Below are positions 2,503 to 61,018 of a DNA stretch of 64,000 nt, one piece after another; the first letter of the stretch is position 1; the number at the start of each line of letters is the position of its first letter. The notes beneath the pieces were generated by a model, which had not been told where the DNA came from, ran no database searches, and saw only the letters and a list, made by a program, of their open reading frames with translations. The DNA lies in the NCBI GenBank assembly GCA_022072055.1, contig JAJVIK010000007.1, positions 513,442 through 577,441 on the forward strand, given 5' to 3'. Origin of the DNA: a bacterium. GTDB lineage: Bacteria > Hinthialibacterota > Hinthialibacteria > OLB16. The translations under genes and the position numbers were made by a program.

Positions 2503-2504
2503 CT

Positions 2505-3109: not shown

Positions 3110-3111
3110 CA

Positions 3112-7084: not shown

Positions 7085-10124
<3,040 letters not shown>

Positions 10125-10140
10125 GATTGTGTTCGTGCTC

Positions 10141-10719: not shown

Positions 10720-10728
10720 TCTCTTCCG

Positions 10729-11022
10729 TTATTCCGAGGCGTTTTTCAAACACACGGATTCATTTTTGTATCGCAGCCCGATCAGCAGCAGGGAGAGCAG
10801 GTGTCCCGCCGCGAAGGCAACCACCGCCGAGTCCATCCGAATTCCCGGGATCAGCGCGCCCGCCGCAAGCAAGGCCCCCACGGCGAGGATTCGGATGAGC
10901 GAATCCAGGCGGAGTCTTGTGGAACCTCCCACGGTTCCGCGCTCGCGCGCTCCCAAGGCCCGCACAAGCAGGCCCGTGTGCAGGGCCGCCGCAACAAGCC
11001 CCCACAGCGCGCCCACGAGCAT
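10729..11022 (-). CDS. Small membrane protein (three hydrophobic segments; possibly AtpI/AtpZ-like)
   Basis: About 97 aa from internal Met MLVGALWG; sits where an Fo b-subunit gene would be expected but lacks the b-subunit coiled coil. Confidence 0.35.
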   Translation of the reverse strand: MLVGALWGLVAAALHTGLLVRALGARERGTVGGSTRLRLDSLIRILAVGALLAAGALIPGIRMDSAVVAFAAGHLLSLLLIGLRYKNESVCLKNASE

Positions 11023-11200
11023 TGAGAGAAACACCGAAACCCTCTTGCTGTATCGTCCGGGTTGCCAGTGGGCAAAGAGAAGCGACCGACCACCGGAAGG
11101 AATCGGGCCAAGCGCCGAAGGGGAGCGGAAAACCTCCCTCCGGCTGCACCGGGCGGATTGTGCGGTCCCCGGCGTTCCTGTCAAGTCCCCAGGAGGGGAC

Positions 11201-17060: not shown

Positions 17061-17228
17061 GCGGAGTCCAACTCCGCGGTCCGGTTCCGCCCAGGAGTCC
17101 AACTCCTGGGCGAGCGGAGGGTTAGAGCATTTCTCACTCGGATGTCGTGTTGGAGGGGCGCGGTCCCTCGCGTCCGGACACGACAGAGCTACGGGGGCGT
17201 CCGGACACGACAGAGCGTGTCCCTCCTG
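17061..17228. repeat. Mosaic GC-rich palindromic repeat, copy B1 (two TCCAA-loop hairpins, TTAGAGC module, GGACACG hairpins)
   Basis: Fills the convergent gap between rhamnosidase and rhaT; homologous to segments at 40720-40772, 53925-54020 (inverted) and 60552-60637. Confidence 0.6.
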
Positions 17229-17229
17229 G

Positions 17230-18285
17230 CTACGGGGTCGCGTCCTTCAGGTAATTCCCCACTCCAATGATGAGGGTGGAGAGGATCAACACCGCGATGC
17301 CGCCTTGGAGCAGCCCCTTGGCCTTCGGGCTGGTTCCGCTCCATTCACGCAGCCAGAGACCCCACAGATTGCTGAACACGATGATGAAGGCCATGTGGAG
17401 GGTCCAACTGGAGAAATCATACTCGCCCATGCGCGTGGTCCCCATCCCATAGAAGAAGAATTGCAAGTACCAGGTGACCCCGGCCAACGCGGAAAAGATG
17501 TAGTTCCGCGTCATCCCCGGCTTGGTGGTGTCGAGATATTCCCCGACCGTGCCGTTGGAATAGTGCAGCAGGGCGCACCAGATCAGGTTGGTCGTGAATC
17601 CGCCCAATAGAACCACCACGAGCACCGGGGTGTTTTGCCAGATGTCCGGCGTGCCCATCTCAATCGCCAGACCGGCGATGGGCTTGCCGGCCTGAAAGGC
17701 GAAGGCCATGCAGGCGCTCATGATCCCGCAGAAGACCGCCACCCAGACCCCCTTGGTGAACTGGTATTCGGCCACCGCGTTGGCCTTTTCGGCCACCGAG
17801 AGCTCCCGCTCCTTAAGGACCCCAGCCCAACCGCTGACCCCGATTCCCGCGATGCACACGCACACCCCGAGAAGAATGGCCCATCCGGAAGCTTGGGTGA
17901 GAAGAACTCCCAAGGTTCCCTCGAAGAGCGGCGGGAGAAGGGTCCCGAAGGTGGCGCAAAGTCCGAGCGCCAAGGCATACCCCAGCGAAAGCCCCAGATA
18001 GCGCATGGTCAACCCGAAGGTGAGTCCGCCCACGCCCCACAGAACCCCGAAGAGGTAAGTGTTGAAGAGCGCCGCCGCGGGGGCGCTGGAGAGGATCTCA
18101 AACAGACGCGGATTGAGCAGACTGGCCGCCACCAGCGGCGCGATGATCCAGGAGAACACCCCGCCCACCGCCCAGTAGGTCTCCCAGGACCAGCCCCGAA
18201 CCTTCTTGAACGGGAGGTAAAAGCTCCCCGCGGCCAGCCCCCCGACCGCGTGCAAAAACACACCCAGCATCGGATTCGCTTCCAT
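17230..18285 (-). CDS. rhaT: L-rhamnose-proton symporter
   Basis: About 351 aa, 10 TM helices, RhaT-like N-terminus MEANPMLGVFLHAVGGLAAGSFYLPFKKV; upstream extension in the ORF track rejected. Confidence 0.85.
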   Translation of the reverse strand: MEANPMLGVFLHAVGGLAAGSFYLPFKKVRGWSWETYWAVGGVFSWIIAPLVAASLLNPRLFEILSSAPAAALFNTYLFGVLWGVGGLTFGLTMRYLGLSLGYALALGLCATFGTLLPPLFEGTLGVLLTQASGWAILLGVCVCIAGIGVSGWAGVLKERELSVAEKANAVAEYQFTKGVWVAVFCGIMSACMAFAFQAGKPIAGLAIEMGTPDIWQNTPVLVVVLLGGFTTNLIWCALLHYSNGTVGEYLDTTKPGMTRNYIFSALAGVTWYLQFFFYGMGTTRMGEYDFSSWTLHMAFIIVFSNLWGLWLREWSGTSPKAKGLLQGGIAVLILSTLIIGVGNYLKDATP

Positions 18286-38110: not shown

Positions 38111-39658
38111 ATGCGGGAAGTCATCCGTCCTGTTCGAGCGGCGAAGCATCGCCTGTGGGTCGGCGCGTTCCTCGCGGGAACTGTCCAGGGGCTACTGGTT
38201 CTTGCCGCCTTGGTGATCCTCCCCGCGGCCGCCATCCGCCTGTGGGAGTTTCCCTGGAACCCGTTTGCGCTCCTTTCGGCCTTGTTGCTGGCTCCGGCAT
38301 GGGGTCTGTATCGTTTGTGGCGCGCGCGGATCAATGACGCCGCCGCGTCGGTCGAGGTGGACCGCCGTTTTCGCCTCGCGGAGCGTCTCTCCAGCGCCTA
38401 TCTCCTCCGTGAGCGACACGACCCGATGGTGGAGCTCTTGAAGGAGGACGCCTCCCGTCACGCCGCCACGCTCCAGGTCCCGAGCCGTTTCCCCATCGAG
38501 CCGCCCAAGCGAACCCCCATCGTGGCCGCGGAGCTGGCCGCTTTCTGCGCGGTGGCGCTCTGGCTTCCGCCCTTTCCCAAGGAGGCCGAAGAACCTGTCC
38601 GTGTCGTTCGCGAGCAGCCTCTTTCGGAGAAGAAGGAAGAGGAGCTCGCCAAGCTTCTGAAGAAGCGCGAGGAGAATCTTCGCAAGCATGAAATCCCCGA
38701 GGCGGCCACGGGGGGACTGGAGCTCAAGGACCCGCTCTCGCTACTGGCCGAACAACTCAAGAAGGAGAAGCTCTCCCAGAAGGAGGCCATGACCCTGCTC
38801 TCCGAGGGGGAACGGGAGCTGCGCGAGAAGAAGGAGAAGCTCGACCGGATCGAGCAGGCCCGGAACCGGATTGCGCGCAACCTGGAGGACCAGCGGTTTA
38901 CCAAGGATGTTCGCGAGTCCCTCTCCGCCGGGGACTATGAAAAGGCCGCCGAGGCGCTGAAGGAGCTTTCCAGTCAACTGGCTTCGTCCGAGCTCTCTCC
39001 GGAGGACATGAGCAAGCTGACCCGTGAGCTGGAGAACTTGGCCAACGATCTGGAGGGAAACCCGGAAATCGCCCAGGCGATCCGTGATGCCCTCAAGGGT
39101 CTGAAGGAGTCCAGCTCCGGCCAGGGTTCTCCCAAGCTTTCCGGCGAAAACCTCGCCAAGGCGCTCTCGGGTCTTTCCAAGGCGGGCGCGAGCCTCTCGG
39201 AGCTCAAGCGCTTGGCCGAACGGAGCGGCGATTTGAACCGTCTGCTCCAGGACGCCGAGCTGGCGAAGCTCGCGCTTGGGGACGCCAGCAAGCAATGCAA
39301 GGCCTGCGGGAAGATCTGTTCCGGCACGATGTGCGCGAAGTGCGCCGGGGGCTGTAATTCGGGCATGGGCGGACCGGGACAAGGGCGCGGCAACACCGCC
39401 AATCCCTATGAGAATCCAAATGCCGGCTTCCAGGATGAAAAGGTCTCCAGCGCCTGGCATCCGGGGCGGATTCTCGGCGTGGTGGAGACCGAAGCGGAAA
39501 ACAGCCCGGCGGTTTCGACCCTGGGGACCGGAGTCGTGTTTGTCGAGGCGGGCGCCCGTGAGCAGGCGGTTGTCCAGGAGGAGATCCCGCCCGGATATGA
39601 AGAAATTGTGCGCGGGTATTTCGACCGAGAGACTCAGCCGCCCGCGACCTCGCCTTGA
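38111..39658 (+). CDS. Membrane-anchored coiled-coil protein with C-terminal Cys-rich (C-x2-C...C-x2-C) motif
   Basis: Two N-terminal TM helices, long K/E-rich coiled coil, CKACGKICSGTMCAKCAGGC. Confidence 0.55.
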   Translation: MREVIRPVRAAKHRLWVGAFLAGTVQGLLVLAALVILPAAAIRLWEFPWNPFALLSALLLAPAWGLYRLWRARINDAAASVEVDRRFRLAERLSSAYLLRERHDPMVELLKEDASRHAATLQVPSRFPIEPPKRTPIVAAELAAFCAVALWLPPFPKEAEEPVRVVREQPLSEKKEEELAKLLKKREENLRKHEIPEAATGGLELKDPLSLLAEQLKKEKLSQKEAMTLLSEGERELREKKEKLDRIEQARNRIARNLEDQRFTKDVRESLSAGDYEKAAEALKELSSQLASSELSPEDMSKLTRELENLANDLEGNPEIAQAIRDALKGLKESSSGQGSPKLSGENLAKALSGLSKAGASLSELKRLAERSGDLNRLLQDAELAKLALGDASKQCKACGKICSGTMCAKCAGGCNSGMGGPGQGRGNTANPYENPNAGFQDEKVSSAWHPGRILGVVETEAENSPAVSTLGTGVVFVEAGAREQAVVQEEIPPGYEEIVRGYFDRETQPPATSP

Positions 39659-40485
39659 GCCTCGCCCGTTTGGTTCTCCTTGTGGTGGTCTGTTTCCTCC
39701 TGTCGGGAGGGGTGCATCTCCTTTCGAGACGTTTCGGGTGGACACGTCCCCGGCGTCTGGGAAGAAACAAATCCCTCGATCCTCCCACCTCCGAGGGGGG
39801 GGTGGCGTTCCTGCTCGCGTTCTTGGTTTGCCTCGCGGCCTCGGTTCCCTATCTGGAGAGTGACCTGCTGCTTTCCCCGGAGGAGATGCGCGCCCATCAC
39901 CTCGGCCTCGGGGCCGCTTTGGTTTGCCTCTTTGCGGTTGGCCGCTGGGGGGATGGCAAGTCTCACTCCCATTGGATCCATTTGTGCGCCCTATTGGTTG
40001 CGGGACTGATCCTGGCGCTCTCGGGGTTTGCGATCGAGACCCTGCGCGTGGGTTCCACGGTCCATGCGCTGGGGGTGCTGTCGGTTCCGGCCACCATTCT
40101 GTGGCTGATTGTGATCTCCGAGTTCTTCCGTCTTTTTGATGGACTCGATGGGCTGTTGGTGAGCTTGGTGTTGGGGGTGATCGCGCTTCAACTTGGATTT
40201 GTGCTTGAGGCGGAGGAGGGGTATGCGCGGGCGCTGTGTCTGGCCGCGGTCCCCGCGCTGCTCGGATTGCTCCCCTGGCGGATTTACCCGGCGAGGATTG
40301 AGCTCCGAGGTATCGGGGCGTTTCTCCCGGGGTTTGTGGTGGGGGCGATCTCGATGGCTGGGCGCGAGAAGGCCTTCACCACCAAGGCGGTGGTGGCCCC
40401 CACCATCGCCGCCATCGCGGTGTTCTCATTGTTCTGTCTGTGGCTGCTGGAGCAGCATTTGTTTTTGCCGAAGAGGAAGGGTTAG
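39655..40485 (+). CDS. MraY/WecA-like polyprenyl-phosphate sugar-phosphate transferase family membrane protein, apparently C-terminally short
   Basis: Multiple TM helices; FDGLDGL matches the NxxNxxDGxDGL motif; TTG start; ends where the repeat-disrupted region begins. Confidence 0.55.
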   Translation: MSLARLVLLVVVCFLLSGGVHLLSRRFGWTRPRRLGRNKSLDPPTSEGGVAFLLAFLVCLAASVPYLESDLLLSPEEMRAHHLGLGAALVCLFAVGRWGDGKSHSHWIHLCALLVAGLILALSGFAIETLRVGSTVHALGVLSVPATILWLIVISEFFRLFDGLDGLLVSLVLGVIALQLGFVLEAEEGYARALCLAAVPALLGLLPWRIYPARIELRGIGAFLPGFVVGAISMAGREKAFTTKAVVAPTIAAIAVFSLFCLWLLEQHLFLPKRKG

Positions 40486-40722
40486 AATTTCCGGCAAGAG
40501 GCCACGATCATACGGGAACTTGAGATTAGGAAAAACGAGATCGAGAAGCTGTGCACGAAGCATTCTGTCCGACGCCTGGAAGTATTTGGCTCCTCGGTGG
40601 AAGGCCGGTTTGACCCCGAGGCCAGTGACCTAGTAGTCTTGGATTCCCGCTTTCGCGGGAATGACGAATATCAGGGACTCCTTCAAGAGCTCGCGCGTCT
40701 TCTGCAGTCATCTTCGCCGTAG
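40486..40722 (+). pseudogene. Remnant of an MNT-type nucleotidyltransferase (HepT/MNT antitoxin family), no start codon, C-terminus replaced by repeats
   Basis: Open frame encoding IRKNEIEKLCTKHSVRRLEVFGSSVEGRFDPEASDLVVLD, then the repeat-encoded DSRFRGNDE; absent from the ORF track. Confidence 0.55.
40641..40669. repeat. Short palindromic element, family A copy 1 (GGATTCCCGCTTTCGCGGGAATGACGAAT)
   Basis: Perfect 7-bp-stem hairpin; identical 29-mer at 59506-59534. Confidence 0.6.
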
Positions 40723-40772
40723 AGCATCTCTCAACCCGAATGTAGCGTCGGAGGGACGCGCTCCGTCGCGTC
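40720..40772. repeat. Mosaic GC-rich palindromic repeat, copy B2 (TAGAGC module plus GGAGGGACGCG hairpin)
   Basis: Aligns with 17122-17175 and with the reverse complement of 53960-54020. Confidence 0.5.
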
Positions 40773-40849
40773 ATGTTGCCCCGGAAGACCCACCACGATT
40801 GGGCGTGGCCCTCCGAGGATTTGCAGGATATCATTAACCGCTCAAGTGA

Positions 40850-41818
40850 TCACACATAGTCTGGGGACCTCCGGAGGCCCCCCTTTTTGAACCTCAGCAG
40901 TAGCGACCTCCCGCCCAGCAGCATCCCTAGCCGTTGGGTCCAGCGCATGTCATAACGGTCCACGGTCCCCTGGTGGGCCACTCTGGAAGCGATCCAGACA
41001 AAGAGCGCGAGCGGCAATAGGAACCATTGCTTGCGACGCGGCATGAGCGAATCCATCTCAACCAGCTCCAGCCCGGCATAATCCCCCGCGAGCTTCCAGT
41101 GGGAGGCTGAGAACACTGAAAGATGAGGGGGACTCGCAAGCTTGTCCGCTCCACGGTCCTTGTTCGCCGGTGGCCGCGCGGCGGAGCCTTTGAGGAGATA
41201 CCCCACCCGGCGCTCGATGCTCGAGTAATTCGGGGTGCAGACCACCAGCTCCCCGCCCTTCTTCAGAACCCGCGCAAACTCCCGAAAAGCAAGCCAAGGG
41301 TTCTCCAGATGCTCCACCCCCTCGGCGGAAACAACCACATCAAAGCTCTCATCCGGGAGCGGGAAGGGCTGGTTCATGTCCACTCGGACCGCGGACGCGC
41401 CCCGGCCCTGATAGTGCTCAGGAAAGAGGTCGGCGGCGGTCACCTCAAAACCCTTTCCGCGAAGCTCATGGGTCAGCCACCCCGGGCCGCACGGGAGATC
41501 GAGGATGTGACCGCCGGGGGGAAAAGGAATCCGCGCAAGGAGTTCATCCAGGATCCCCGCCCGCGAGGACCGCTTGGGGGCATGCCCCGCCTCATTCAAT
41601 CGTTCCTCGAACCAACGAGACACCTGGGGCGGCGGTGCGAGCTCTCCCGCCTCAATCCGGCCCAAGTCCGAGTCCGAAATCCGAAGCATCCGAGCCAACA
41701 CCGGCCGCAGGGCATGCTCACCCGGTTGACGTTTCCGCATGAAGCGGAGTTGACGCCCGAATTCGGGTTGGGACAGGGCCCCGGAATCCTCTGTTTGGGG
41801 TGAATCGGTCGCGGTCAT
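40850..41818 (-). CDS. XRE-type HTH domain fused to class I SAM-dependent methyltransferase
   Basis: N-terminal HTH-like segment (LARMLRISDSDLGRIEAGE); SAM-binding motif ILDLPCGPGWLT. Confidence 0.7.
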   Translation of the reverse strand: MTATDSPQTEDSGALSQPEFGRQLRFMRKRQPGEHALRPVLARMLRISDSDLGRIEAGELAPPPQVSRWFEERLNEAGHAPKRSSRAGILDELLARIPFPPGGHILDLPCGPGWLTHELRGKGFEVTAADLFPEHYQGRGASAVRVDMNQPFPLPDESFDVVVSAEGVEHLENPWLAFREFARVLKKGGELVVCTPNYSSIERRVGYLLKGSAARPPANKDRGADKLASPPHLSVFSASHWKLAGDYAGLELVEMDSLMPRRKQWFLLPLALFVWIASRVAHQGTVDRYDMRWTQRLGMLLGGRSLLLRFKKGGLRRSPDYV

Positions 41819-43082: not shown

Positions 43083-46000
43083 ATGAGAATCCGCCCATTC
43101 TCGCTCTTGGCGTTTCCTCCGTTGCTTTTTTGCCTCCTTGTGCCTGGGGCGCGAGCCGCCACGTTCACGGTCACCAACACGAACAACAGTGGGGCGGGAT
43201 CCCTGCGTCAGGCGATCCTGGAGGCCAACAGCGTGCTGCCTCCAGAAGCGGTGTTTATTCATTTTAACATTATCGGAATGTTCGTGTTCCCGATTATCAA
43301 TCCCTCTTCTCCGCTTCCCAACATCCTTCGTCCGGTCACCATCGATGGAACCACTCAGCCGACTTCCAACAACCGCGTGGCCATCCAAGGCATTAACGCG
43401 GGGGCCAACGCGGATGGTCTCCATTTCGGTCCCAACTCCGATGGCAGCGTGGTCCGCGGTCTGGTTATCAACAGTTGGAGCGATGACGGCATCGAGCTTG
43501 AGCAGAGCGATGGCACGGTGGTGGCCAGGAATTGGATCGGAGTCGATTTCGCCTTGGGGATGGTCGATCTGGGTAACGGCGCGGCTGGAGTTCATGTCAA
43601 TAATTCGTCCCACACAAGTATTGGTGGACTCACCGCCGCGGACCGAAACGTGATTTCAGGAAACAACGGAAACGGTGTATGGATCATTAATGGCTCCACT
43701 GGGACTCATGTGATCGGAAACTACATCGGAATTGGCGCTGATGGAGCCACCGCCGTCCGCAACACGAACACGGGGGTCCTTATTGCGGCCTGCTCCGACA
43801 ATTATGTCGGTGGTCCGACAGTCGGGGAAAGAAACATCATTTCCGGCAACGGAAACGGAGTGACTGTGCTGGGGGCCAACGCCAGGAACAATGTGATCCA
43901 AGGAAACTGGATTGGAACCAGCGCGAATGGTTCTGCCGACTTGGGGAATGTGGTGGATGGCGTTCGGATCGAATCGGCGCAAAACACGCTGATCGGAGGG
44001 GATGCATCGTTTGAAGGCAACCCGCCGGGGAATGTCATTTCGGGAAACGACATGGCGGGAGTCCACATTCTGGGGGCAAGCCGCACCTTCATCCAGGGAA
44101 ACGCCATCGGGAAGGATGGCAGCGTGGTGGTCGCGATCCCCAACGGAGGGGATGGAGTTCTCGTTGAAGCCGAGACGCTGGGAGCATGGCCCCGACACAC
44201 GGTCATCGGCGGCAGGGGAGGACTCGGCAACGACATCTCACACAATCAGCTGAGCGGGATCGCGATCGAGGATGGAACCGGTGTGCTGATCCAAGGAAAC
44301 AGCCTCTCCGGGAACGGCCAATATGGCGTACGCCTTCGTAGCGACGACAATGTCGTGGGCGGCCCCAGCCCCGAGGACGGCAACGTGATCGCCTTCAACG
44401 GCCGAAGCGGAGTCTATGTAAACGCATCGAGTGGAAATTTGATCGGCGGGGCCACCGAGGAAAGCGGGACCTTCATCTTTGGGAATCAGGAACATGGCGT
44501 CCTGATCAGCGGTCTCACTGGAGAGAACAATCGGATCGAGGGGTGCAATATCGGACGCACCGTGGGGGGGGGCGCATCGGGAAACCTCCGAAACGGCGTC
44601 CGAATCAGCATGTCAAGCAACAACATCGTGGGGGGAACGGAGCCCCACAAGGCCAACGTCATTGTCGCCAACCAGGAGGGGGGCGTGGCGATTCTCAGTG
44701 AGCTCACCCACGGCAACCGAGTTCAAGGAAACGGGATCGGGGTCAGCCTCGAGATTGTAAACAAAGGGACCTACTCCAACTCTGTTGGGGTGTTGATCGA
44801 TGGCGCCAAGAACAACCTGATCGGCGGAACCGAGCCGGGCGCGAGGAATCTGATCTCAGGTAATGACGGGGATGGCATCCTTCTTCGCAACTCCGCCTCA
44901 AACAACCGCATTCAAGGCAACCTGATCGGCCTCGCGGGGGATGGAGTCTTCGGTGTCGGCAATGGCGCAGCGGGGATCGAAATCCTGAATTCCCCCAACA
45001 ACCTCATCGGCGGCACCATGCCCGGCGCGCGCAATGTGATCGCGGACAACAGCGACGGCATCTTTATCCTCGGAGGAGCCCTCTCCGCGAACAATGTCAT
45101 CCGGGGGAATTACATTGGGACCGATGTCTCCGGCGCGCTGGCTCGAGGGAATCATGTTAACGGGGTCTTCGCCCAAGCGGCGGAATTTGTGGTCGGCGGG
45201 ACCGAACCGGGCGCCGGAAATCTGATTTCCGCGAACAGGCTGCGAGGAGTGTTTCTCTCCAGCTTCGATTCCACTCACTGCCGGGTCCAAGGCAATCGGA
45301 TCGGAACCGACGCCTCCGGCATGGCCGCGCTGGGGAATGGAGGCGACGGGGCCCTCCTGGAGAGCACGATCCAGTGCGCCATCGGCGGAACCGCGCCGGG
45401 CGCGGGCAACCTCATCTCCGGGAATGGCGGGAATGGTGTCTGGCTGGTCACCGGAGCAAGCGGAAATGTTGTCGCGGGCAACTTCATCGGCACGAATATC
45501 ACTGGGGACACAAGTCTCGGGAACGGCCAGAGCGCGGTCCTTATCGAGGACGCCCAATTGAACCGGATCGGGGGAAACCAGCCCGGCGCCGCCAACATCC
45601 TCTCCGGCACCAACCAATATGGGGTCCACATCAATCATCCGCTGGCCAAGGAGAATCGCATCGAGGGCAACTTCATCGGGACCGACATCACGGGCTCATT
45701 GCCCCTCGGCAACAGGTTCGGCGGAGTGTTGATTGTGGACGCCTCGGACAACTATATCGGCGGGACAACACCCGGCGCGGGGAACTTGATCTCCGGAAAC
45801 GGAGGCTCCGGCATCCGCCTGTTCAAGACCATGAACACCCCCGGAAGAACCTTCATTCAGGGCAATCGGATCGGAACCGACGTCACCGGAGTGTTGCCGC
45901 TGGGGAACATGAGTCGAGGCGTCGACCTTTCCGCGACAGTCGGAGTGGAGATCGGAGGGATCACCGAGGGCGCGCGAAACCTGATCTCCGGGAACGGGTT

Positions 46001-47342
46001 CTCCGGAATTCTGTTCCACGATGAGGCGCGCGAAACCCTGGTCCAGGGGAATTTCATCGGGACCGACATCACCGGGCTTCTGCCGGTTCCGAATGGTCTT
46101 GATGGGGTCTTCATCGAAAACGCCCCAAGCAATCTGGTCGGAGGCGCCACTCCCGGCGCGGGAAACCTGATCTCCGGGAACGCCCGCTATGGCGTCTATC
46201 TCCTCGATAGCAAGGCGGTCGGGAACCGTGTCCAGGGGAATCGCATCGGCACGGATCTCACCGGTTCCTCGGATATCGGCAACGCCTCGGCGGGGATGTA
46301 CATCAAAGCCGCGACCGGCAATGCTCTAGGCGGAACCGGAGCGGGCGAGGGGAATCAAATCGCCTTTAACCTCGCCGGGGTGACCATCCTTTCCGGCTCG
46401 ATGAACCCCATCCTCTCCAACTCGATCTTCTCCAATGATGGCCTTGGAATCGATCTTGGCGAGGACGGAGTCACCGCCAACGACGAGATCGACTCCGACA
46501 CCGGCGCGAACGATTTCCAAAACTATCCGATCCTCACCGACGCTCGAATCGCCGAGGCCCAACCGGACAACATCCTGTCGATCACAGGAACCCTGCACAG
46601 CGCCACAGCCACGGAGTTCCTGCTTCAGTTCTTCGCAAGCGAGATCTGCGATGCTTCCGGTTTCGGTGAAGGAAGGGTCTTCATCGGTTCGGCCACTGTT
46701 GTGACCAACGCCTCCGGAGACGTCACATTCACATTCGATTTTCCCATCCAACTTACTGGAGCTCTCCAGCTCACCTCAACCGCCACGGACCCCATCGGCA
46801 ACAGCTCGGAGTTCTCCCAGTGCCTGGAGGTGGTCGGCATTCCGACCCCCACTCCGACCGCGAGCGCCACGCTCACCCCCACCTCGACCCCATCGCCGAG
46901 CGCCTCGCCCACGGAGACCGCGACAGACACGCCAAGCGCCTCTCCGACTCAATCGTCCTCTCCCTCGGCGACCTTCACCGGGCAACCGACCGTCACCGCG
47001 AGCGCAACCCCCTCGGCGACCGCCACGGGACAGCCAACATCCACGCCGACCGCGACCTCCTCATCCGCTCCGAGCGCAACTCCCACTCCCACAACCACGG
47101 GTAGCCTACCGGCGACGTCAACTCCCACTCCCACCACGACCGGCAGCCAAGCGGCCACCCCCACGGCCACTTCCACCTGCGCGCCGGACTACAACCTGGA
47201 TGGGCTGGGGGCGATCGACGCGCGGGACCTTCTGCAGCTCCTCGCCGCGATCCGCTCAGGCGACCCCCAAGCGGACTTCAATTGCGATGGCGCGGTGGAT
47301 GGGGATGATCTGCTCGAGTTCAGTGGGAGGTGGAAGGAATAG
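43083..47342 (+). CDS. Giant secreted right-handed parallel beta-helix repeat protein with Pro/Thr-rich linker and C-terminal dockerin-like domain
   Basis: Signal peptide; tens of PbH1-like repeats (NxIxGNxIGxxxxG); dockerin-like Ca-binding loops DYNLDGLGAIDARDL and DFNCDGAVDGDDL. Confidence 0.8.
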   Translation: MRIRPFSLLAFPPLLFCLLVPGARAATFTVTNTNNSGAGSLRQAILEANSVLPPEAVFIHFNIIGMFVFPIINPSSPLPNILRPVTIDGTTQPTSNNRVAIQGINAGANADGLHFGPNSDGSVVRGLVINSWSDDGIELEQSDGTVVARNWIGVDFALGMVDLGNGAAGVHVNNSSHTSIGGLTAADRNVISGNNGNGVWIINGSTGTHVIGNYIGIGADGATAVRNTNTGVLIAACSDNYVGGPTVGERNIISGNGNGVTVLGANARNNVIQGNWIGTSANGSADLGNVVDGVRIESAQNTLIGGDASFEGNPPGNVISGNDMAGVHILGASRTFIQGNAIGKDGSVVVAIPNGGDGVLVEAETLGAWPRHTVIGGRGGLGNDISHNQLSGIAIEDGTGVLIQGNSLSGNGQYGVRLRSDDNVVGGPSPEDGNVIAFNGRSGVYVNASSGNLIGGATEESGTFIFGNQEHGVLISGLTGENNRIEGCNIGRTVGGGASGNLRNGVRISMSSNNIVGGTEPHKANVIVANQEGGVAILSELTHGNRVQGNGIGVSLEIVNKGTYSNSVGVLIDGAKNNLIGGTEPGARNLISGNDGDGILLRNSASNNRIQGNLIGLAGDGVFGVGNGAAGIEILNSPNNLIGGTMPGARNVIADNSDGIFILGGALSANNVIRGNYIGTDVSGALARGNHVNGVFAQAAEFVVGGTEPGAGNLISANRLRGVFLSSFDSTHCRVQGNRIGTDASGMAALGNGGDGALLESTIQCAIGGTAPGAGNLISGNGGNGVWLVTGASGNVVAGNFIGTNITGDTSLGNGQSAVLIEDAQLNRIGGNQPGAANILSGTNQYGVHINHPLAKENRIEGNFIGTDITGSLPLGNRFGGVLIVDASDNYIGGTTPGAGNLISGNGGSGIRLFKTMNTPGRTFIQGNRIGTDVTGVLPLGNMSRGVDLSATVGVEIGGITEGARNLISGNGFSGILFHDEARETLVQGNFIGTDITGLLPVPNGLDGVFIENAPSNLVGGATPGAGNLISGNARYGVYLLDSKAVGNRVQGNRIGTDLTGSSDIGNASAGMYIKAATGNALGGTGAGEGNQIAFNLAGVTILSGSMNPILSNSIFSNDGLGIDLGEDGVTANDEIDSDTGANDFQNYPILTDARIAEAQPDNILSITGTLHSATATEFLLQFFASEICDASGFGEGRVFIGSATVVTNASGDVTFTFDFPIQLTGALQLTSTATDPIGNSSEFSQCLEVVGIPTPTPTASATLTPTSTPSPSASPTETATDTPSASPTQSSSPSATFTGQPTVTASATPSATATGQPTSTPTATSSSAPSATPTPTTTGSLPATSTPTPTTTGSQAATPTATSTCAPDYNLDGLGAIDARDLLQLLAAIRSGDPQADFNCDGAVDGDDLLEFSGRWKE
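46839..47177 (+). repeat. Low-complexity Pro/Thr/Ser-rich linker-coding repeat inside the beta-helix gene
   Basis: About 113 codons of T/P/S/A with a reiterated TPTPTTTGS unit. Confidence 0.6.
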
Positions 47343-47631: not shown

Positions 47632-47889
47632 CTACTCCTCCTCCGCAAGTTGCCGCTCCTCAGCCTTTCCCGAGCGAGCATCGGCCAACGACTTCATCAA
47701 CCTCTCCTCATTCCTTGGACACCGCAACAGGTACGCCGTCTCCTCCATTGACTCGTAATCCGAAAGAGAAAGGAGTACGGCTGGCGGATGGCCTGAACGC
47801 GAAATGATCACCGGCTCGCAGTCCGCCTCGATACGATCCAGGACGGTCGTGAGGTTCTTCTCGAACTCCGCAAGAGATACAGTTTCCAT
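47632..47889 (-). CDS. yefM: YefM antitoxin (Phd/YefM family)
   Basis: 85-aa ORF 3 nt upstream of yoeB with Phd/YefM-like N-terminus (PVIISRSGHPPAVLLSLSDYESMEET). Confidence 0.85.
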   Translation of the reverse strand: METVSLAEFEKNLTTVLDRIEADCEPVIISRSGHPPAVLLSLSDYESMEETAYLLRCPRNEERLMKSLADARSGKAEERQLAEEE

Positions 47890-48175
47890 TCCGCTCTCCC
47901 ATCGTCTTTCGCCATTCGGTTGTCAAACCAAATCGCGCATCCCCCTGGATACCGGCACCCTCCGGTATGACGGGTGAGGCGCATGACGAGAACAGGGTTT
48001 GTGGCGCATCCGACCACCGGGATGACCGCCTCATTTCCATCCTAAAGCCAGTCTGGCCGGATGCAAAGGCCCCGTGTGTGAGGGACTGGGTGATTGCTCT
48101 CGGGACTTAAGTTGACAGTCGTTCTCTCGCCCACCATTCTGATTACGTAAGGCGACATCCACCCCCTACAAAACC

Positions 48176-48628
48176 ATGCCCGCCCTCACCATCCGCCCTT
48201 ACCAAGACCCCGAAGAAGCCTCGGTGGTCGCGCTCTGGGGCGAGCTGCTTGACGATGGCTCCCCGCACAACGATCCCCTCACCTCCCTTCGCCGTAAACT
48301 GGCGCTGAGTCGGGAATTACTTTTCGTCGCGCTTCTGGATGACCTTGTGGTTGGAACCGCGATGGGCCGATACGATGGGCGCCGGGGATGGATCCATTCG
48401 GTCGCGGTCAAGCCGGAATTCCAGCGCCACGGGATCGGGACCGCCCTCATCCGGAGGGTCGAGGAGGATCTCAAGTCCTTGGGTTGCCCCAAAGTCAACC
48501 TTCAAATCCGCGCCTCGAACAGCGGAGTCGCGGGTTTTTACCAACGCCTTGGTTACACGGTGGAGGAACGGATCAGCATGGGAAAACGCCTCCATGACCG
48601 AGCAGTTCCCCCTCCCTCCACGCCTTGA
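48176..48628 (+). CDS. GNAT family N-acetyltransferase
   Basis: Acetyl-CoA binding motif region (RRGWIHSVAVKPEFQRHGIGTALI). Confidence 0.75.
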   Translation: MPALTIRPYQDPEEASVVALWGELLDDGSPHNDPLTSLRRKLALSRELLFVALLDDLVVGTAMGRYDGRRGWIHSVAVKPEFQRHGIGTALIRRVEEDLKSLGCPKVNLQIRASNSGVAGFYQRLGYTVEERISMGKRLHDRAVPPPSTP

Positions 48629-53899: not shown

Positions 53900-53924
53900 A
53901 GCGGGTAACGTCAGCGTGTGGCAC

Positions 53925-54020
53925 CTGGAGGGACACGCTCCGTCGTGTCCGGGCGCGAGGGGCCAAGGGACGCGACGGAGCGCGTCCCTCCAACGCAACA
54001 TCCGAGTGAGATAGGCTCTA
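53925..54020. repeat. Mosaic GC-rich palindromic repeat, copy B3 (inverted orientation; long imperfect hairpin)
   Basis: Reverse complement aligns with 17122-17225; about 24-bp stem pairing GGAGGGACACGCTCCGTCGTGTCC with GGGACGCGACGGAGCGCGTCCCTCC. Confidence 0.6.
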
Positions 54021-54030
54021 AGTTGGGGTG

Positions 54031-55311
54031 TCAGTTCCCGACCGGATCGAGCAGAAACGCGCGGTATTTCCCGTTAATCGTTCCCTCTCCCACAATCTGG
54101 CCCTTGTTGTTGATGTCCTTCGCGATCAAAAGGACCCAGCCTTTCCCATCCACAAGCTGGTTGGTCAGATCATAGAGCGCTCCATCTTTCCACAGGACCG
54201 CGGAGCTTTTCGCGCCGATCCGGTCACTGATCTGGTTCCAGAGTTGACGGACCCAGCGGAACTGCTTGAATCTGTTGTAGAACTTTTGCGCGAGGGGAAT
54301 GTCGATTCCGTCCCCGACAATTTCACCTCGATCATTGAGGGCGAGCGGCCGACAACTCTCGAAAGACTTCATCGCAAGGAAAGCATGGGTTCCGTTGTCC
54401 CAGAGGAAAGGTTCGTATTCGTCAAAATCTCCACCGGTGGGGAAAGCCCCCGCCACTTGACCGCGCTGGTTTAAGGCCGCCGCCGAGCTGCCCTTCATGC
54501 CGCTTAGATGAATGTCCCGCATCCCTTTGTCCGGAGTCCAAACAAAGGCGTGCTGCTCGCCGCTTGCGGTGGAGCCGTATCCGGCGATCCAGCCGGAGGA
54601 GTTTACCGCGGCAGGGTGGACAACGGGGCCTCCGAGATCACCCAAGTCCTCAAAACCACATTCCGAGGTCCATCGGAAGAGGCGTCGATAGGGCCGAGGG
54701 GGCGCCCTTTTCGGACCCTCCATGTCCTGCGCGGCCACCACGAAGGCTCCTCCCGATCCGAAAAGAACGTCCTCGATGGAGGTGAATCCCGTGATGGAAA
54801 GAACAACCTCCTCGGCTGAGGCAGACCGGATGAGGTGAATTCTCTTTGGCTGTCTCAGCGGCGCGCCCGCGCCATACACTCCGAAGGCGCCGCCATAGAC
54901 CGAAGGACCACCCGGCGTGAACTCCTCCACAGTTTCCACAACGAGGATTCTCCCGAGGGGGTCGATTTCGACCGCTGTTCCCGTGGTCCCCTGGGAGAGG
55001 CCCAGGTCTTTCATTCCCGATTCTCTTGTCCACAGAAAGGGATGGGTGACGAAGGGTGGAACAAACTGTTGCATGTTGCCGGGAGACGAATCTTTGGGGC
55101 GCGGAACCGCGGCGCTCCCGACCACCTCGCCTCGATCATTGATGGCCACGGCACGCACTTGCGCGTGCTTGGAGAGAACCCCCAGATCGGTGATGCGATA
55201 ACGAGGTCCCGAGGGCCAGGCCAACAACCACCACAAGAAAAGCGCCCCGAATGCAAAGACCGCCGCCTGGAGGAACGTCTTACGCTGGGTTATTGATTTC
55301 CCCTCAGCCAT
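54031..55311 (-). CDS. HAF-repeat family extracellular/anchored protein, paralog 1
   Basis: N-terminal hydrophobic anchor, PSGPRYRITDLG, HAF-like repeats (INDRGEVVG, QHAFVWTP), C-terminal GKYRAFLLDPV. Confidence 0.7.
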   Translation of the reverse strand: MAEGKSITQRKTFLQAAVFAFGALFLWWLLAWPSGPRYRITDLGVLSKHAQVRAVAINDRGEVVGSAAVPRPKDSSPGNMQQFVPPFVTHPFLWTRESGMKDLGLSQGTTGTAVEIDPLGRILVVETVEEFTPGGPSVYGGAFGVYGAGAPLRQPKRIHLIRSASAEEVVLSITGFTSIEDVLFGSGGAFVVAAQDMEGPKRAPPRPYRRLFRWTSECGFEDLGDLGGPVVHPAAVNSSGWIAGYGSTASGEQHAFVWTPDKGMRDIHLSGMKGSSAAALNQRGQVAGAFPTGGDFDEYEPFLWDNGTHAFLAMKSFESCRPLALNDRGEIVGDGIDIPLAQKFYNRFKQFRWVRQLWNQISDRIGAKSSAVLWKDGALYDLTNQLVDGKGWVLLIAKDINNKGQIVGEGTINGKYRAFLLDPVGN

Positions 55312-56062: not shown

Positions 56063-57316
56063 TCACTCCACCGGGTCAAGCAGGAACGAGCGCGTGTTTC
56101 CCTGGAAGGTCCCCTCGCCCACAATCTGTCCCTTGTTGTTGATGTGCCTGGCGGACCAAAGGACCCAGTCGTCCCCGTCCACAAGCTGGTTGTTCAGATC
56201 ATATAACTCCCCATCCTTCCACAGGAGCGCGGAAGCCCTCTCCTCGAGCCAGTTCTCGCCCCAGTCTTCGAGCCAAGGGACAGCCCAGGCGGCCCAAGGT
56301 CGCTGCATGAGCGCTGTCAAAATCCTCTGGGTGGCGGGACGGTACGATCCGCCCCCGACTATCTCTCCAGGATCGTTGATATCTTGGGCCTCGCAACGTT
56401 CGAAATGCTCCACGGGGAGCGGGGTGTAGGTTTCCTTCTCCCAGAGGAAGGGTTTCGACCCACCCCACCCGCCGCGTGACCAGGAAAATCCCACGACCTG
56501 ACCTCGGTTGTTCAACCCCTGTGCGTGGCTGATCCGCTCGTCGGTCGGATGGATGTCCCGCATCCCTTGAACCGGAGTCCAGATAAACGCGTGCTGTTCC
56601 CTGCTCGCCGTGAGGGCATATCCGGCAATCCAACCGTTTTCGTTCGCCGATTCTGGAATGACTTGGTTGCCCCCCAAGTTCCCGAGACTTTCATATCCCT
56701 TCTCCGCGCTCCACCGAAGAAGGTCTTCAGACTGGGTCCCCACCGTGGTCAGGCCGCTCGCCGGCATCAGCAGGGTCTCATTCGGTCCGAGGGCGACCTG
56801 ACCCAAGGAGATGGCGCGAGTTTCGGTCAGGATGATGTGCGCGCCGGTGGCCGAATGGATCACATAGGTGCGCTTTATGGGTTGTGGTCGGGGAGTCCCA
56901 TAACCTCCCGGCCCACCGTAAGGTTGCACGGCGGATGGGGAGAGGTCTTGATGGTGCTCAACGACCAGAATCCGGCCGCGTTCGTCAATGTCCCGGGCGG
57001 AGCCGGAATTGCCCTCCAAGAGGCCGAGGTCCCTTATCCCCGACTCGCGGGTCCAGAGAAAGGGGTGTGTGACATAACTCCGGCGTCGTCCCCCCTCGGA
57101 AGGGGTGGCGGATTCAACCGGAAGGGGAACCGCCATGCCGCCAACCACCTCGCCACGCTCATTGAGGTCGGCCACTTGATCCGCCACCCTGCTCGCCCCG
57201 ATTTGGAGGTCGGTGATGCGATAGCGGGGACCGGAGGGCGGAGATGAAAGGAGCAGGAGGGCAAGCGCGCCGAGGGCGACAATGGCTGAAAGGAGGAACG
57301 CGATTCGCTTCGGCAT
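56063..57316 (-). CDS. HAF-repeat family extracellular/anchored protein, paralog 2
   Basis: Same architecture as 54031-55311 (PSGPRYRITDL, HPFLWTRESGIRDLG, QHAFIWTP, C-terminal RSFLLDPVE). Confidence 0.7.
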   Translation of the reverse strand: MPKRIAFLLSAIVALGALALLLLSSPPSGPRYRITDLQIGASRVADQVADLNERGEVVGGMAVPLPVESATPSEGGRRRSYVTHPFLWTRESGIRDLGLLEGNSGSARDIDERGRILVVEHHQDLSPSAVQPYGGPGGYGTPRPQPIKRTYVIHSATGAHIILTETRAISLGQVALGPNETLLMPASGLTTVGTQSEDLLRWSAEKGYESLGNLGGNQVIPESANENGWIAGYALTASREQHAFIWTPVQGMRDIHPTDERISHAQGLNNRGQVVGFSWSRGGWGGSKPFLWEKETYTPLPVEHFERCEAQDINDPGEIVGGGSYRPATQRILTALMQRPWAAWAVPWLEDWGENWLEERASALLWKDGELYDLNNQLVDGDDWVLWSARHINNKGQIVGEGTFQGNTRSFLLDPVE

Positions 57317-58459: not shown

Positions 58460-60241
58460 TCAATTCGCCGCTTCTCCCAGCCCGGACCGCCCCTGTCCCT
58501 GCTCCAGGACCCAATCGCGGATGAACTGCGGTGGGAGCTGGTGCAGCGAGAAAAGCCGCTCCCCGCGATAGGCCACTGTGGCCAGCGCCGGGAGCTCCGC
58601 CAAGACCTTCCGCGCCGCCGGATGAAGGTCGCTATAGCGGCTCCCGATGCACGCGAAGACCTGAAGGCCGGGATTGGCGAGCTCCGCCGAGAGCTCGAAC
58701 CGAAACACTTGCAGCCCCTCCGGAATCGCGGGCCAGCCCTCCGGGCCCTCGCGATAGACCGCAGCCGCTCCGCCCTCCAGCAGCAGCACATCCCCCGGAC
58801 GCGCGAGTTCCTGCAGTTTCGGATTGAGCCGATGCATCGAAACCCCCAGGTAATCCAGATCAAACCCCAAGTGTTTCGCCCCGGAGGGCCCGCCGATCAA
58901 GGGCGTGTAGTAGATCAAGTTGTGCGGGTAAACGCGCAGAGATGGAAACAACACAGCCGTCCCCAATGCGGCGAACAGGCTCCACCGAATCGGGCCGGAG
59001 AAACCGGGGTTCCACCGCGACAAGGCCCAACGCCAACCCTCGCGCAGCTCCATCGCGGCGAGCGCACACATCGGGCCATAGGCCGGCAGCAGCAAGCGGA
59101 CCCCATCGAACTTGGGCACGCTCGGAATCGAACTGATCGCGAGCGGCAAGGCGAACGCCACCCACAGCAAACCTTCCTCGCTTCCCCAACCGATCTCGCG
59201 TGTTCGGAACAGGCGCGCGAGTTTCCGAAGCGCGCGCACCGCCACGGGAACCACCAGAAGTGGCGGGAGCGCGAGGGCCGTGAACACCCACGGGTAATGC
59301 CAGGGGGCAAGATTCCAGTGGTTGTAAACGACTCCGAAATAATAGACCGGGATCTTCAGGTGGTTTCCGATGAAGTCGGCGTACTCCTTTATCCCCTTGG
59401 GGAAATCCAGCCACAACGCGGGCCAGAGCAGAAAGGCCGCGAGCAGCGCAAGGAGAGAGAGGAGAAGCGCCATGAGCGCTTCCCTGAGGCTCCGTCGGAG
59501 CGGCTCGCCGCTCCTGGATTCCCGCTTTCGCGGGAATGACGAATCTTCAAGGGGCAGGGATTCCTCATTGTTCCCGCCGCGCCCGTCATCCCCGCGAAAG
59601 CGGGGATCCACGCCCATCGCGGCAAGCTGTGTGGAGAGCACCCAGAACCCAAGGAGTGCGACCAGGTACATCCCCTGCACCTTGGTGAGCAGCGCGAGCA
59701 CAAACAGGACCAGCGCCACGACCTTCCACGCATGGCTTCTGTTCCAGCCCATGAGCGCGAGCGTGGCAAGGCCATACAGCGCGCCAATCAGCCCATCGAT
59801 TCCGAATCGAACCCCATGCAGCACAAAGCGCGGGCTGCCCAGGAACAGCAGCGCCGCAATCAATCCCGCCTTTCGGCCCATCCGCGACGCGAGAAAGGCA
59901 TACGAGGCCGCGCACCAGATTGAGGTGACCAAGGCCACAAACACACGACACGACCCAAGCTCGCCAAGGCTTCGTCGAAACAGGGCGTTGCAGAATCCGC
60001 CCCCGATTTCCATCAGCGGCGGGTGGCGGTGCGCGTCGGGGAAGTACGCGCGCGGCTCGAAAAGACTCGGGGCCGATTCAGCGGTCCACCAGGACTCCAG
60101 CCAGCGACTCCAAGGGACCGCGCGGTTGTAGAACAGCCAGGAATCCCAGTAGGGTCCGAACCCAGGACTGAGTAGGATGAGTCCCCAGAGGATGATGGCG
60201 CCAAGGAGAGTGGCCTCAAGGCCAAGCCGACTTCGGATCAT
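58460..60241 (-). CDS. Polytopic membrane glycosyltransferase, GT39/PMT-ArnT-like, carrying a repeat-encoded hydrophilic insertion
   Basis: 593 aa, many TM helices N-terminally and a soluble C-terminal domain; family assignment from architecture only. Confidence 0.55.
   Translation of the reverse strand: MIRSRLGLEATLLGAIILWGLILLSPGFGPYWDSWLFYNRAVPWSRWLESWWTAESAPSLFEPRAYFPDAHRHPPLMEIGGGFCNALFRRSLGELGSCRVFVALVTSIWCAASYAFLASRMGRKAGLIAALLFLGSPRFVLHGVRFGIDGLIGALYGLATLALMGWNRSHAWKVVALVLFVLALLTKVQGMYLVALLGFWVLSTQLAAMGVDPRFRGDDGRGGNNEESLPLEDSSFPRKRESRSGEPLRRSLREALMALLLSLLALLAAFLLWPALWLDFPKGIKEYADFIGNHLKIPVYYFGVVYNHWNLAPWHYPWVFTALALPPLLVVPVAVRALRKLARLFRTREIGWGSEEGLLWVAFALPLAISSIPSVPKFDGVRLLLPAYGPMCALAAMELREGWRWALSRWNPGFSGPIRWSLFAALGTAVLFPSLRVYPHNLIYYTPLIGGPSGAKHLGFDLDYLGVSMHRLNPKLQELARPGDVLLLEGGAAAVYREGPEGWPAIPEGLQVFRFELSAELANPGLQVFACIGSRYSDLHPAARKVLAELPALATVAYRGERLFSLHQLPPQFIRDWVLEQGQGRSGLGEAAN
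59506..59599. repeat. Family A composite palindromic element (29-mer plus inverted partner CGTCATCCCCGCGAAAGCGGGGATCC) inside the glycosyltransferase ORF
   Basis: Left arm identical to 40641-40669; right arm is its reverse complement with compensatory changes; translated in-frame as a loop. Confidence 0.6.
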
Positions 60242-60551: not shown

Positions 60552-60637
60552 GTGAGTGCAACTCACCTTACCGGCTCCGCCCCGGAGTGCAACTCCCGGG
60601 CGAGCGTGGGGCCGCGACGGAGCGCGGCCCTCCTCAC
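60552..60637. repeat. Mosaic GC-rich palindromic repeat, copy B4 (two TGCAA-loop hairpins plus GGCCGCG hairpin)
   Basis: Aligns with 17061-17121; stems differ by compensatory substitutions while loops are conserved. Confidence 0.55.
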
Positions 60638-61018
60638 TCAATCATGAACAATGCCGCGATAGGCCGTGGCATCCAGGAGCGTGTCGAGGTCCGCCGAATT
60701 GGCCGGAGCAATCCGGAACAGCCATCCTTTTTCATACGGGGATTGATTGATCCAATCGGGGTGTGTGGCCAGGTCGGCGTTGATCGCGGTCACCGTCCCT
60801 CCCACCGGGGCGTAGACATCCGAGGCCACCTTGGTCGATTCGACCACACAGCAAGCCTCCTTGGCCGCGACCGCGCGCCCGACCTCGGGGAGCTCCACGA
60901 ACACAATGTCGGTGAGTTCATGCTGGGCGAAGTCGGTGACCCCCACCACCACTTGGCCGTCTTCCAGGCGAGCCCATTCGTGAGTTTCGGAATATTTCAA
61001 GGTTTCCGGGACAATCAT
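60638..61018 (-). CDS. gcvH: Glycine cleavage system H protein
   Basis: Lipoyl-lysine region ESTKVASDVYAPVGGTV; 126 aa. Confidence 0.9.
   Translation of the reverse strand: MIVPETLKYSETHEWARLEDGQVVVGVTDFAQHELTDIVFVELPEVGRAVAAKEACCVVESTKVASDVYAPVGGTVTAINADLATHPDWINQSPYEKGWLFRIAPANSADLDTLLDATAYRGIVHD

Follow-up and report, generated by a model that had tools for sequence, protein, structure and literature searches.

The 64-kb window analysed here (the whole stretch of 64,000 nucleotides) carries a gene that is predicted to encode an integral-membrane glycosyltransferase, and the open reading frame (ORF) of that gene runs without interruption through a palindromic composite that contains a repeated 29-mer (GGATTCCCGCTTTCGCGGGAATGACGAAT). 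Across the composite the ORF reads MGVDPRFRGDDGRGGNNEESLPLEDSSFPRKRESRSG, a segment lying between hydrophobic helices. An earlier inspection of the letters alone (the ‘sequence-only reading’) had proposed that a selfish palindromic element was inserted there in frame. On its sequence features, described below, the composite is a head-to-head heterodimer of two repetitive extragenic palindromic sequences (REPs) of the CGTC-1 type. Taken as a whole, the explanation that we favour, and consider very probably correct, is that this dimer, resembling a REPIN (a REP doublet forming a hairpin), entered DNA encoding a loop of a GT-C-fold protein as one unit, that its translation is a passenger, and that it was mobilised by an enzyme of the RAYT type (REP-associated tyrosine transposase).

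The evidence that the segment was added to the protein comes from its relatives. Clear relatives of the host protein number 21, and the protein alignment holds 21 sequences: the window protein, a protein 98% identical to it (P0001) and 19 orthologs at 42-50% identity. The segment, 32 residues long, is found in the window protein and P0001 only, and a gap falls at exactly that place in all 19 orthologs, from which the spacer between the two REPs is absent just as the REPs themselves are. Once the 32 residues are subtracted, the loop (TQLAAMG / RSGEPLRRSLRE) has the length of the ortholog loop, which argues that arms and spacer entered together. Within the gene the element occupies nucleotides 632-727 (96 nt, or 32 codons), corresponding to residues ~V211/D212 to S242/R243 of the 593. 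By this alignment the segment is an insertion, as had been suspected of some 35 residues before any ortholog was compared, and its arrival would fall in an Omnitrophota lineage that had already split from all sampled orthologs. The opposite history, in which an ancestral segment was lost from the orthologs, is less parsimonious and was rejected for that reason as well as for the repeat DNA of which the segment consists.

Two further genomes bear on this conclusion. The contig that encodes P0001 (L240; GCA_013360775.1, annotated as Candidatus Omnitrophica) shares 10 kb with the window at 97-99% nucleotide identity, and is thus regarded as an independent assembly of the same species. There the 96 nt are unchanged, which rules out an assembly artefact, and the 21 differences between the two copies of the gene (10 synonymous, 11 non-synonymous and none a frameshift) all fall outside the element. 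One of the orthologs that lack the insert (P0004, from the metagenome-assembled genome CAYRBI01) belongs to a genome in which the exact 29-mer is found at another place, as part of a head-to-head dimer whose second arm has decayed; that genome therefore offers an empty site in this gene despite the repeat being present.

The exact 29-mer occurs twice in the window, at 40641-40669 and at 59516-59544, where 100 shuffles give a chance expectation of zero. The sequence-only reading had recognised both copies and located the first correctly, but had set the second 10 nt too low (59506-59534); similarly, the inverted partner that it reported about 40 nt away does stand across a 42-nt gap and is 93% complementary (27 nt in each arm), but at 59584-59610 rather than 59574-59599, and the composite that it measured at 94 bp extends over 96 nt. 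Its description of the inverted copy as compensatorily mutated holds: relative to arm A, arm B carries T>C and A>G at positions that are partners within each arm’s own hairpin (ATTCCCGC/GCGGGAAT versus ATCCCCGC/GCGGGGAT), such that the local hairpins stay perfect whereas pairing of arm with arm gains two mismatches or wobbles. The two arms share, on the opposite strand, the consensus CGTC/ATYCCCGC/GAAA/GCGGGRAT/CCA; arm A contains the ATTCCC-N8-GGGAAT (dRS3) pattern and is identical in sequence to a solo copy at 40640-40666. When folded, the 96 nt form one long hairpin both as gene-strand RNA (-63.8 kcal/mol, z -4.3) and as DNA (-33.8 kcal/mol, z -4.5), and in the minimum free energy structure arm is paired with arm. 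All of these features are collected in Table 1.

Table 1. Coordinates of the repeat units and of the gene that contains the dimer (window numbering).
Feature	Position	Strand	Composition or remark
REP arm A	59515..59541	-	CGTC/ATTCCCGC/GAAA/GCGGGAAT/CCA (tag, 8-bp stem, 4-nt loop, stem, tail)
Spacer	59542..59583		42 nt between the two CGTC heads; AATCTTCAAGGGGCAGGGATTCCTCATTGTTCCCGCCGCGCC; translated in the gene frame as GRGGNNEESLPLED
REP arm B	59584..59610	+	CGTC/ATCCCCGC/GAAA/GCGGGGAT/CCA; differs from arm A in one compensated stem pair
Whole head-to-head REP heterodimer, REPIN-like	59515..59610	-	96 nt
Solo arm A, extended by ATT on the 5' side of its tag	40640..40669	-	CGTC/ATTCCCGC/GAAA/GCGGGAAT/CCA; intergenic
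Variant unit, CGTC-1 architecture with another stem	47946..47972	-	CGTC/ATACCGGA/GGGT/GCCGGTAT/CCA; 7/8 pairs; intergenic
Host gene, predicted GT-C-fold (GT39/PMT_2-like) integral-membrane glycosyltransferase with C-terminal soluble domain	58460..60241	-	593 aa

A structure-aware scan of the window, which looked for the tag followed by an 8-bp stem starting with AT and a loop of 4-5 nt, and which used shuffled sequence as its control, returned exactly three units with perfect stems (arms A and B and the solo copy) versus none in the shuffles; relaxation to seven of eight pairs added the variant unit as a fourth. The solo copy stands between the convergent genes 39655-40485(+) (Glycos_transf_4) and 40850-41818(-) (a methyltransferase), and the variant unit between the divergent ORFs 47632-47889(-) (small, antitoxin-like) and 48176-48628(+) (a GNAT acetyltransferase). 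Rfam, searched with the whole window at gathering thresholds, gave no match and contains no model for this repeat.

A second and unrelated family of repeats, ~100-120 nt long, is also present in the window, at 17100-17250(-), 53900-54040(+) and 40715-40835(-), with a partial copy at 60600-60640. A member is built of two hairpins rich in G+C (GGAGGGACACGCTCCGTCGTGTCC and GGGACGCGACGGAGCGCGTCCCTCC), after which comes AACGCAACATCCGAGTGAGAAATGCTCTAA. Every copy is intergenic; the solo REP at 40640-40669 has one of them as a neighbour at ~65 nt, and the contig of a distant ortholog of the glycosyltransferase (L242) carries similar hairpins. The family resembles a miniature inverted-repeat transposable element (MITE) or a REP-like element.

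The CGTC-1 family was defined, among CGTC-tagged REPs, by Di Nocera, De Gregorio & Rocco (2013, BMC Genomics 14:522; PMC3733652), by means of an unpaired 5' CGTC tag (with the variants TGTC and CCTC), an 8-bp stem with A,T first, a 4-nt loop and a short unpaired CCA tail; its units recur within a genome, in most cases paired head to head across spacers of 20-100 bp, and the typical location of such REPs is between convergent genes. Both arms of the window composite and the solo copy carry the CGTC tag; the stems of the two arms each consist of eight Watson-Crick pairs (8/8) around a GAAA loop; and the arms, the solo copy and the variant unit all end in CCA. In the composite the CGTC heads face each other across a spacer that falls within the published range, three to four units are visible in the 64 kb, and CGTC-1 units are present on each of the relatives’ contigs as well. 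Judged by sequence, then, the composite is a head-to-head heterodimer of two CGTC-1-type REPs and shows every sequence-level feature of that family, along with a solo unit between convergent genes and a unit read in frame within a gene, both of which are described for CGTC-1 in the same survey.

The peptides encoded by the repeat point the same way. Additional file 3 of the 2013 survey (PMC3733652) lists intragenic, in-frame CGTC-1 monomers and dimers that are translated as SFPRKRES, DSRFRGND, CHSRESGNP, VIPAKAGI and WMPAFAGMT (for example SFPRKRES...DSRFRGND in R. conorii RC0332, and ...IPAFAGMT in S. wittichii), and these are the peptides of the three open frames across the window element. 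A full-text search of the literature for the repeat-encoded peptides returned no paper; they were found solely in that supplement. As a phenomenon, an in-frame element of this type is not new, given that such insertions were catalogued in 2013 in both the main text and the supplement of that survey. The comparison with selfish palindromes made in the sequence-only reading was sound, in that RPE-6 of Rickettsia is likewise a CGTC-1 element and has these peptides as its translation.

The window dimer departs from the published CGTC-1 repeats in three respects: its host phylum, Omnitrophota, lies outside the five reported for CGTC repeats (Proteobacteria, Chlorobi, Bacteroidetes, Spirochaetes and Thermotogae); its host gene encodes a GT-C glycosyltransferase, whereas genes for DNA repair or tRNA are highlighted in the survey; and it is a heterodimer, whereas the published dimers are mostly homodimers (PMC3733652). 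The same survey assigns both dRS3 of Neisseria and RPE-6 of Rickettsia to CGTC-1. With the palindromic elements of Rickettsia (RPEs) the window element shares the insertion of palindromic repeats, in frame, into essential or housekeeping genes, where they are translated as extra surface or loop segments, and with RPE-6 in particular it shares the peptide modules seen in RC0332. In contrast to Rickettsia, the window organism is free-living, has a G+C content of 62% and carries few copies per 64 kb, and the Rickettsia dimers that are listed read SFPRKRES...DSRFRGND whereas the window dimer, with its heads inward, reads DPRFRGDD...SFPRKRES. The Rickettsia elements have reportedly been known since 2000, when Ogata et al. 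are said to have described RPE-1 as ‘Selfish DNA in protein-coding genes of Rickettsia’ (refs 13/14 of PMC3733652).

For dRS3 of Neisseria the pattern is a 20-mer, ATTCCC(N8)GGGAAT (PMC3898611). Arm A and the solo copy match it exactly, whereas arm B, as ATCCCC-N8-GGGGAT, is off the strict pattern, and the window contains neither arrays of RS elements (NIMEs) nor an Nf prophage. The element also resembles the REPINs of REPIN-RAYT systems (Bertels & Rainey 2011, PMC3116915), in that it is composed of two inverted REPs, totals ~100 nt and can form a single long hairpin; a REPIN of Neisseria that is tied to a Group 2 RAYT is built on the same core, ATTCCCGC....GCGGGAAT (bioRxiv 10.1101/2021.07.10.451892). 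In those systems the REPINs form, within a genome, a population of near-identical sister copies, and the genome encodes a single-copy cognate RAYT (an HUH/Y1 transposase) that usually has its REPs on either side. Unlike the elements of those systems, it is intragenic instead of extragenic, and it is the one dimer in a window that holds no cognate RAYT. A classical MITE, derived from a DDE transposase, was considered and rejected: inverted termini are present, but the junctions (...ATGGGCG/TGG...CCA/GGAGCGG...) display no target-site duplication or direct repeat.

The identity of the host protein, which the sequence-only reading had called a membrane glycosyltransferase, was approached through family and structure comparisons that both support that assignment. 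The source record names it ‘glycosyltransferase family 39 protein’, and its match to Pfam PMT_2 is marginal (26.4 bits against a cut-off of 26.1). An AlphaFold (AF2) model for which the alignment served as input has high confidence before and after the insert (predicted local distance difference test, pLDDT, 83; predicted template modelling score, pTM, 0.85), and its Foldseek matches comprise ArnT (5f15/5ezm, E 1.4e-6), STT3, ALG9/12, AftA and PglB. The first loop contains an invariant F-G-x-Y-W-D (F28, G29, Y31, W32, D33), an Asp in the N-terminal loop being one mark of such GT-C (GT39/PMT_2) enzymes, and all 79 of the invariant columns of the alignment are kept in the 593-residue ORF, on both sides of the insert and into the C-terminal domain. 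From these data the host is predicted to be a GT-C-fold membrane glycosyltransferase.

Within that model, residues 212-244 constitute the only internal segment of low confidence (pLDDT <50), between helices 188-208 and 246-271, and the loop that received the insert is disordered. The membrane topology was read by hand according to the positive-inside rule, with the weakly hydrophobic helices 32-53 and 76-92 treated as juxtamembrane; it comprises 11 transmembrane segments. In this reading the protein starts on the inside and has its C-terminal domain on the outside, and the loop at 209-245 is probably cytoplasmic. In GT-C enzymes such as ArnT and PglB the active site is extracytoplasmic. Read together with the topology, that arrangement would have the loop face away from the active site.

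That the reading frame stayed open is a likely outcome and no surprise, given the arithmetic of the element, its open frames and the tolerance of the loop. A CGTC-1 unit (4+8+4+8+3) amounts to 27 nt, the spacer to 42 nt and the whole to 96 nt, all of them multiples of three. Five of the six frames of a REP monomer are open (the sole stop follows GFPLSRE), and the dimer is open in two of the three frames of the gene strand and in three of six overall. Survival of the gene would thus have depended on three circumstances: the addition of 32 codons by an element in which every part is a multiple of three, the lack of stops in two of three gene-strand frames, and the placement of the product in a disordered loop remote from the extracytoplasmic active site. 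A frame-compatible unit in such a disordered and distant loop is best regarded as a passenger, and the 32 extra residues (DPRFRGDD...SFPRKRES) would accordingly form no functional domain.

This glycosyltransferase family has been struck more than once. In the ortholog P0011 (L241, gene 10001-11782, 46% identity) a 27-nt solo REP, TGTC/ATTCCCGC/GAAG/GCGGGAAT/CCA, is located in frame at ~10700-10727 and encodes LDSRLRGND (…FPLDSRLRGND…) in the same loop as the window insert. In another ortholog, P0012 (L242, gene 1705-3525), two mutually inverted copies of a different repeat (GTCATCCTGAGCGAAGCGAAGGAT ... ATTCTTCGCTCCGCTCCGAATGAC) are read in frame at 2707-2787, giving the peptides VILSEAKDL...ILRSAPNDR in the next cytoplasmic loop, which is strongly basic. 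By sequence comparison, repeat insertion has therefore recurred independently in the same or the neighbouring loop of two orthologs. The GTAG palindrome of L242 (see below) and its ‘SEAKDL’ repeat were sought in the window and are absent from it.

In the mechanism that we favour, two CGTC-1 REPs would have come to form a head-to-head dimer, a non-autonomous element of the REPIN type, which was inserted as a single unit into DNA encoding a loop, probably cytoplasmic, between two transmembrane helices. Mobilisation would have taken place in trans: a RAYT-type HUH/Y1 transposase, whose gene would lie at another site of the genome, would have acted on the element in the form of a single-stranded hairpin. 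The precedent is furnished by Neisseria, where REPINs built on ATTCCCGCGCAGGCGGGAATC (241 copies) are linked to a Group 2 RAYT and decay where that RAYT is frameshifted (bioRxiv 10.1101/2021.07.10.451892). When the window and 250 further loci were searched (by tblastn with the E. coli RayT and with a hidden Markov model, HMM, built from 120 listed RayT homologs, all of them enterobacterial, so that the model is narrow), L242 was the sole match; a weak RayT match on L133 was rejected as a membrane protein. The ORF on L242 (6484-6900) belongs to the RayT family but comprises only the C-terminal half (…FWQRNYYEHIIRN…; RayT HMM E 4.9e-5, with a weak Pfam Y1_Tnp match, 0.098); a perfect GTAG-type palindrome, GTAGGGGCGACGCATGCGTCGCCCCTAC, and a CGTC-1 unit stand directly before it. 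Its homologs bear the name ‘REP element-mobilizing transposase RayT’ (in many cases given by JGI), and the 120 listed are all 66-133 residues long, which suggests that members of this clade are commonly split or truncated by palindromes, or else are systematically mis-called.

Several observations weigh against this mechanism. Neither a RAYT nor any other transposase is found in the window (tblastn with the E. coli RayT, the RayT HMM against all ORFs, and Pfam against 40 ORFs), and the RAYT-related evidence within the clade comes only from L242, the contig of the distant ortholog P0012. The junctions of the window dimer show no target-site duplication and no conserved target; such an absence is compatible with chemistry like that of IS200/IS605 but is no proof of it, and the flanks of eight other dimers with the same arms have nothing conserved beyond TGG/CCA. 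In those eight metagenomic dimers, whose arms are exactly the two of the window dimer, the spacers measure 36-54 nt and are unrelated, also to that of the window. A conserved spacer as part of the mobile unit is thus unsupported, and no sister copies of this 96-nt unit are evident. With one dimer and two solo units in the window, the sequence covered for this species (the window and a 10.7-kb contig) falls short of demonstrating a REPIN population within the genome. Finally, the cytoplasmic placement of the loop depends on the topology that was made by hand.

Part of this evidence can be turned toward a different origin, in which the arms are genuine CGTC-1 REPs that were put in place by two monomer insertions, or by recombination or integration-excision at REP sites, instead of by RAYT-driven transposition of a dimer. 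The recombination would be the work of a site-specific recombinase, such as the Piv/IS110-like enzyme of the Neisseria Nf1 prophages that targets dRS3, and either route would leave behind a scar of two REPs with arbitrary DNA between them; dRS3 is an integration target of Nf1/MDA prophages and a proposed substrate of recombination (PMC3898611). The spacers between identical arms, unrelated in both sequence and length, agree with such a route, as do the lack of a RAYT in the window and the lack of a dedicated transposase for CGTC REPs in the 2013 survey (PMC3733652). Nonetheless the orthologs lack arms and spacer together and the length of the loop fits a single 96-nt event, no recombinase, prophage or remnant of an insertion sequence lies near the gene, and the correlation between REPINs and RAYTs in Neisseria favours a RAYT for this type of repeat; we regard the recombination or double-landing origin as unlikely.

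Two other possibilities concern the fate of the gene rather than the route of the repeat. The insert might have been co-opted, with the charged 32-residue loop or the stable hairpin in the messenger RNA regulating translation, stability of the message or membrane insertion. Many REPs act as RNA elements according to Di Nocera et al. (PMC3733652), the hairpin here is a strong one, the same loop was hit independently in P0011, and the insert is identical in two genomes that differ at 21 other sites of the gene. That last point carries little weight: divergence between the genomes is only ~1% and every one of the 21 differences is located 3' of nucleotide 1178, such that zero changes in 96 nt is uninformative. 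Recurrence in loops is moreover expected from tolerance alone, the segment is predicted to be disordered, and its peptides are fixed translations of the REP consensus that are found in unrelated proteins, all of which makes co-option very improbable. A pseudogene in decay, or an artefact of annotation, in which the read-through is accidental is harder still to credit. Three of the six possible frames through the element are free of stops in any case, which makes an open frame weak evidence by itself, and the Pfam score is marginal; against this stand the retention of every invariant column on both sides of the insert, the confident model on either flank and the intact ORF of the second genome, with its mixture of synonymous and non-synonymous differences and no frameshift. 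The favoured reading, in which a dimer was inserted as one unit and is carried as a passenger, is preferred over all three.

Neither of the two outcomes that the sequence-only reading had named as refuting its interpretation is seen: the orthologs do not share the segment, and the repeat itself is far from restricted to the two loci of the window. The exact 29-mer is present in at least 119 stretches of GTDB species genomes, and the general pattern of the repeat in more than 120 viral or prophage contigs. Including the 3 nt beyond the CGTC tag, the identical 29-mer is shared by at least 13 phylum-level groups (L121-L239), with hosts in the Alpha-, Beta- and Gammaproteobacteria, Rickettsiales, Dehalococcoidia/Chloroflexota, Nitrospirota, Gemmatimonadota, Elusimicrobiota, Bdellovibrionales, Binatia, Campylobacterales, Vampirovibrionales/Obscuribacter, Thermodesulfobacteriota/Desulfatiglans, Terriglobia, Bacteroidota and Phycisphaerae, a range that far exceeds the five phyla of 2013 (PMC3733652). 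The arrangement of the 29-mer varies: genomes of the Gallionellaceae/Nitrosomonadales type typically have it in tail-to-tail dimers, where it supplies the second arm and the spacer is ~20 nt, and in some Alphaproteobacteria it occurs in head-to-head dimers with a spacer of ~60 nt. True intragenic copies are rare. Among 122 copies, 22 fall within long stop-to-stop ORFs, nearly all of which are wrong-frame junk in DNA of high G+C content; the only convincing intragenic copy among them is in an isoleucyl-tRNA-synthetase-like ORF of an uncultured member of the Rickettsiales (L122, CAYXYU010000001.1, a metagenome-assembled genome), where, at ~5500-5900, an ORF of 1055 residues contains two in-frame REP pairs (…RHSRESGNP…DSRFRGND… and …RHSREGGNP…DPRLRGGD…).

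A more sweeping proposal would be that CGTC-1 REPs are a single pan-bacterial element, with a stop-poor 27-nt design adapted to survive within genes, that spreads horizontally together with an unrecognised mobilising enzyme. Behind it stand the identical 29-mer in at least 13 phylum-level groups, the 27-nt unit that lacks a stop in five of six frames, and the GT-C family that was hit independently three times in cytoplasmic loops. We consider this improbable; if it were true, REP landings would be a recurrent and general source of new loop segments in membrane proteins, and the idea that REPIN-RAYT systems are inherited only vertically and confined to their lineages would be contradicted.

The phenomenon as such was described between 2000 and 2013, and the window case is a further example of it that leaves the current understanding of REPs unchanged. 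What is new is modest: a host phylum (Omnitrophota), a host protein family (GT-C), a well-documented pair of empty and filled sites, two orthologs in which REPs arrived independently in that loop or the one next to it, and the presence of the exact 29-mer in at least 13 phylum-level groups. In-frame read-through is thereby extended beyond Rickettsia, Proteobacteria and Verrucomicrobia, and the locus, which is empty in 19 orthologs, filled in two genomes and accompanied by a model of the disordered loop, is a clean example of a selfish palindrome that is read through. For annotation, the peptides FPRKRES, DSRFRGND, IPAFAGMT and HSRESGNP in predicted proteins mark REP DNA, and alignments and domain boundaries should be read accordingly. 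The wide occurrence of the 29-mer bears on the question whether CGTC REPs are transferred horizontally and on that of their means of mobilisation.

Two other features of the window may be recorded. At 43083-47342 lies the gene for a beta-helix protein (NosD/Beta_helix) of 1419 residues with ~9 tandem coding repeats of 186-189 nt; it has the appearance of an ordinary surface protein or adhesin. Just downstream of the glycosyltransferase, two paralogous ORFs (54031-55311 and 56063-57316; 426 and 417 residues, with no Pfam match), which share stretches of 71-79% nucleotide identity, are interleaved with ORFs for PIN-domain and small antitoxin-like proteins; the same segment is where the window and L240 differ in arrangement.

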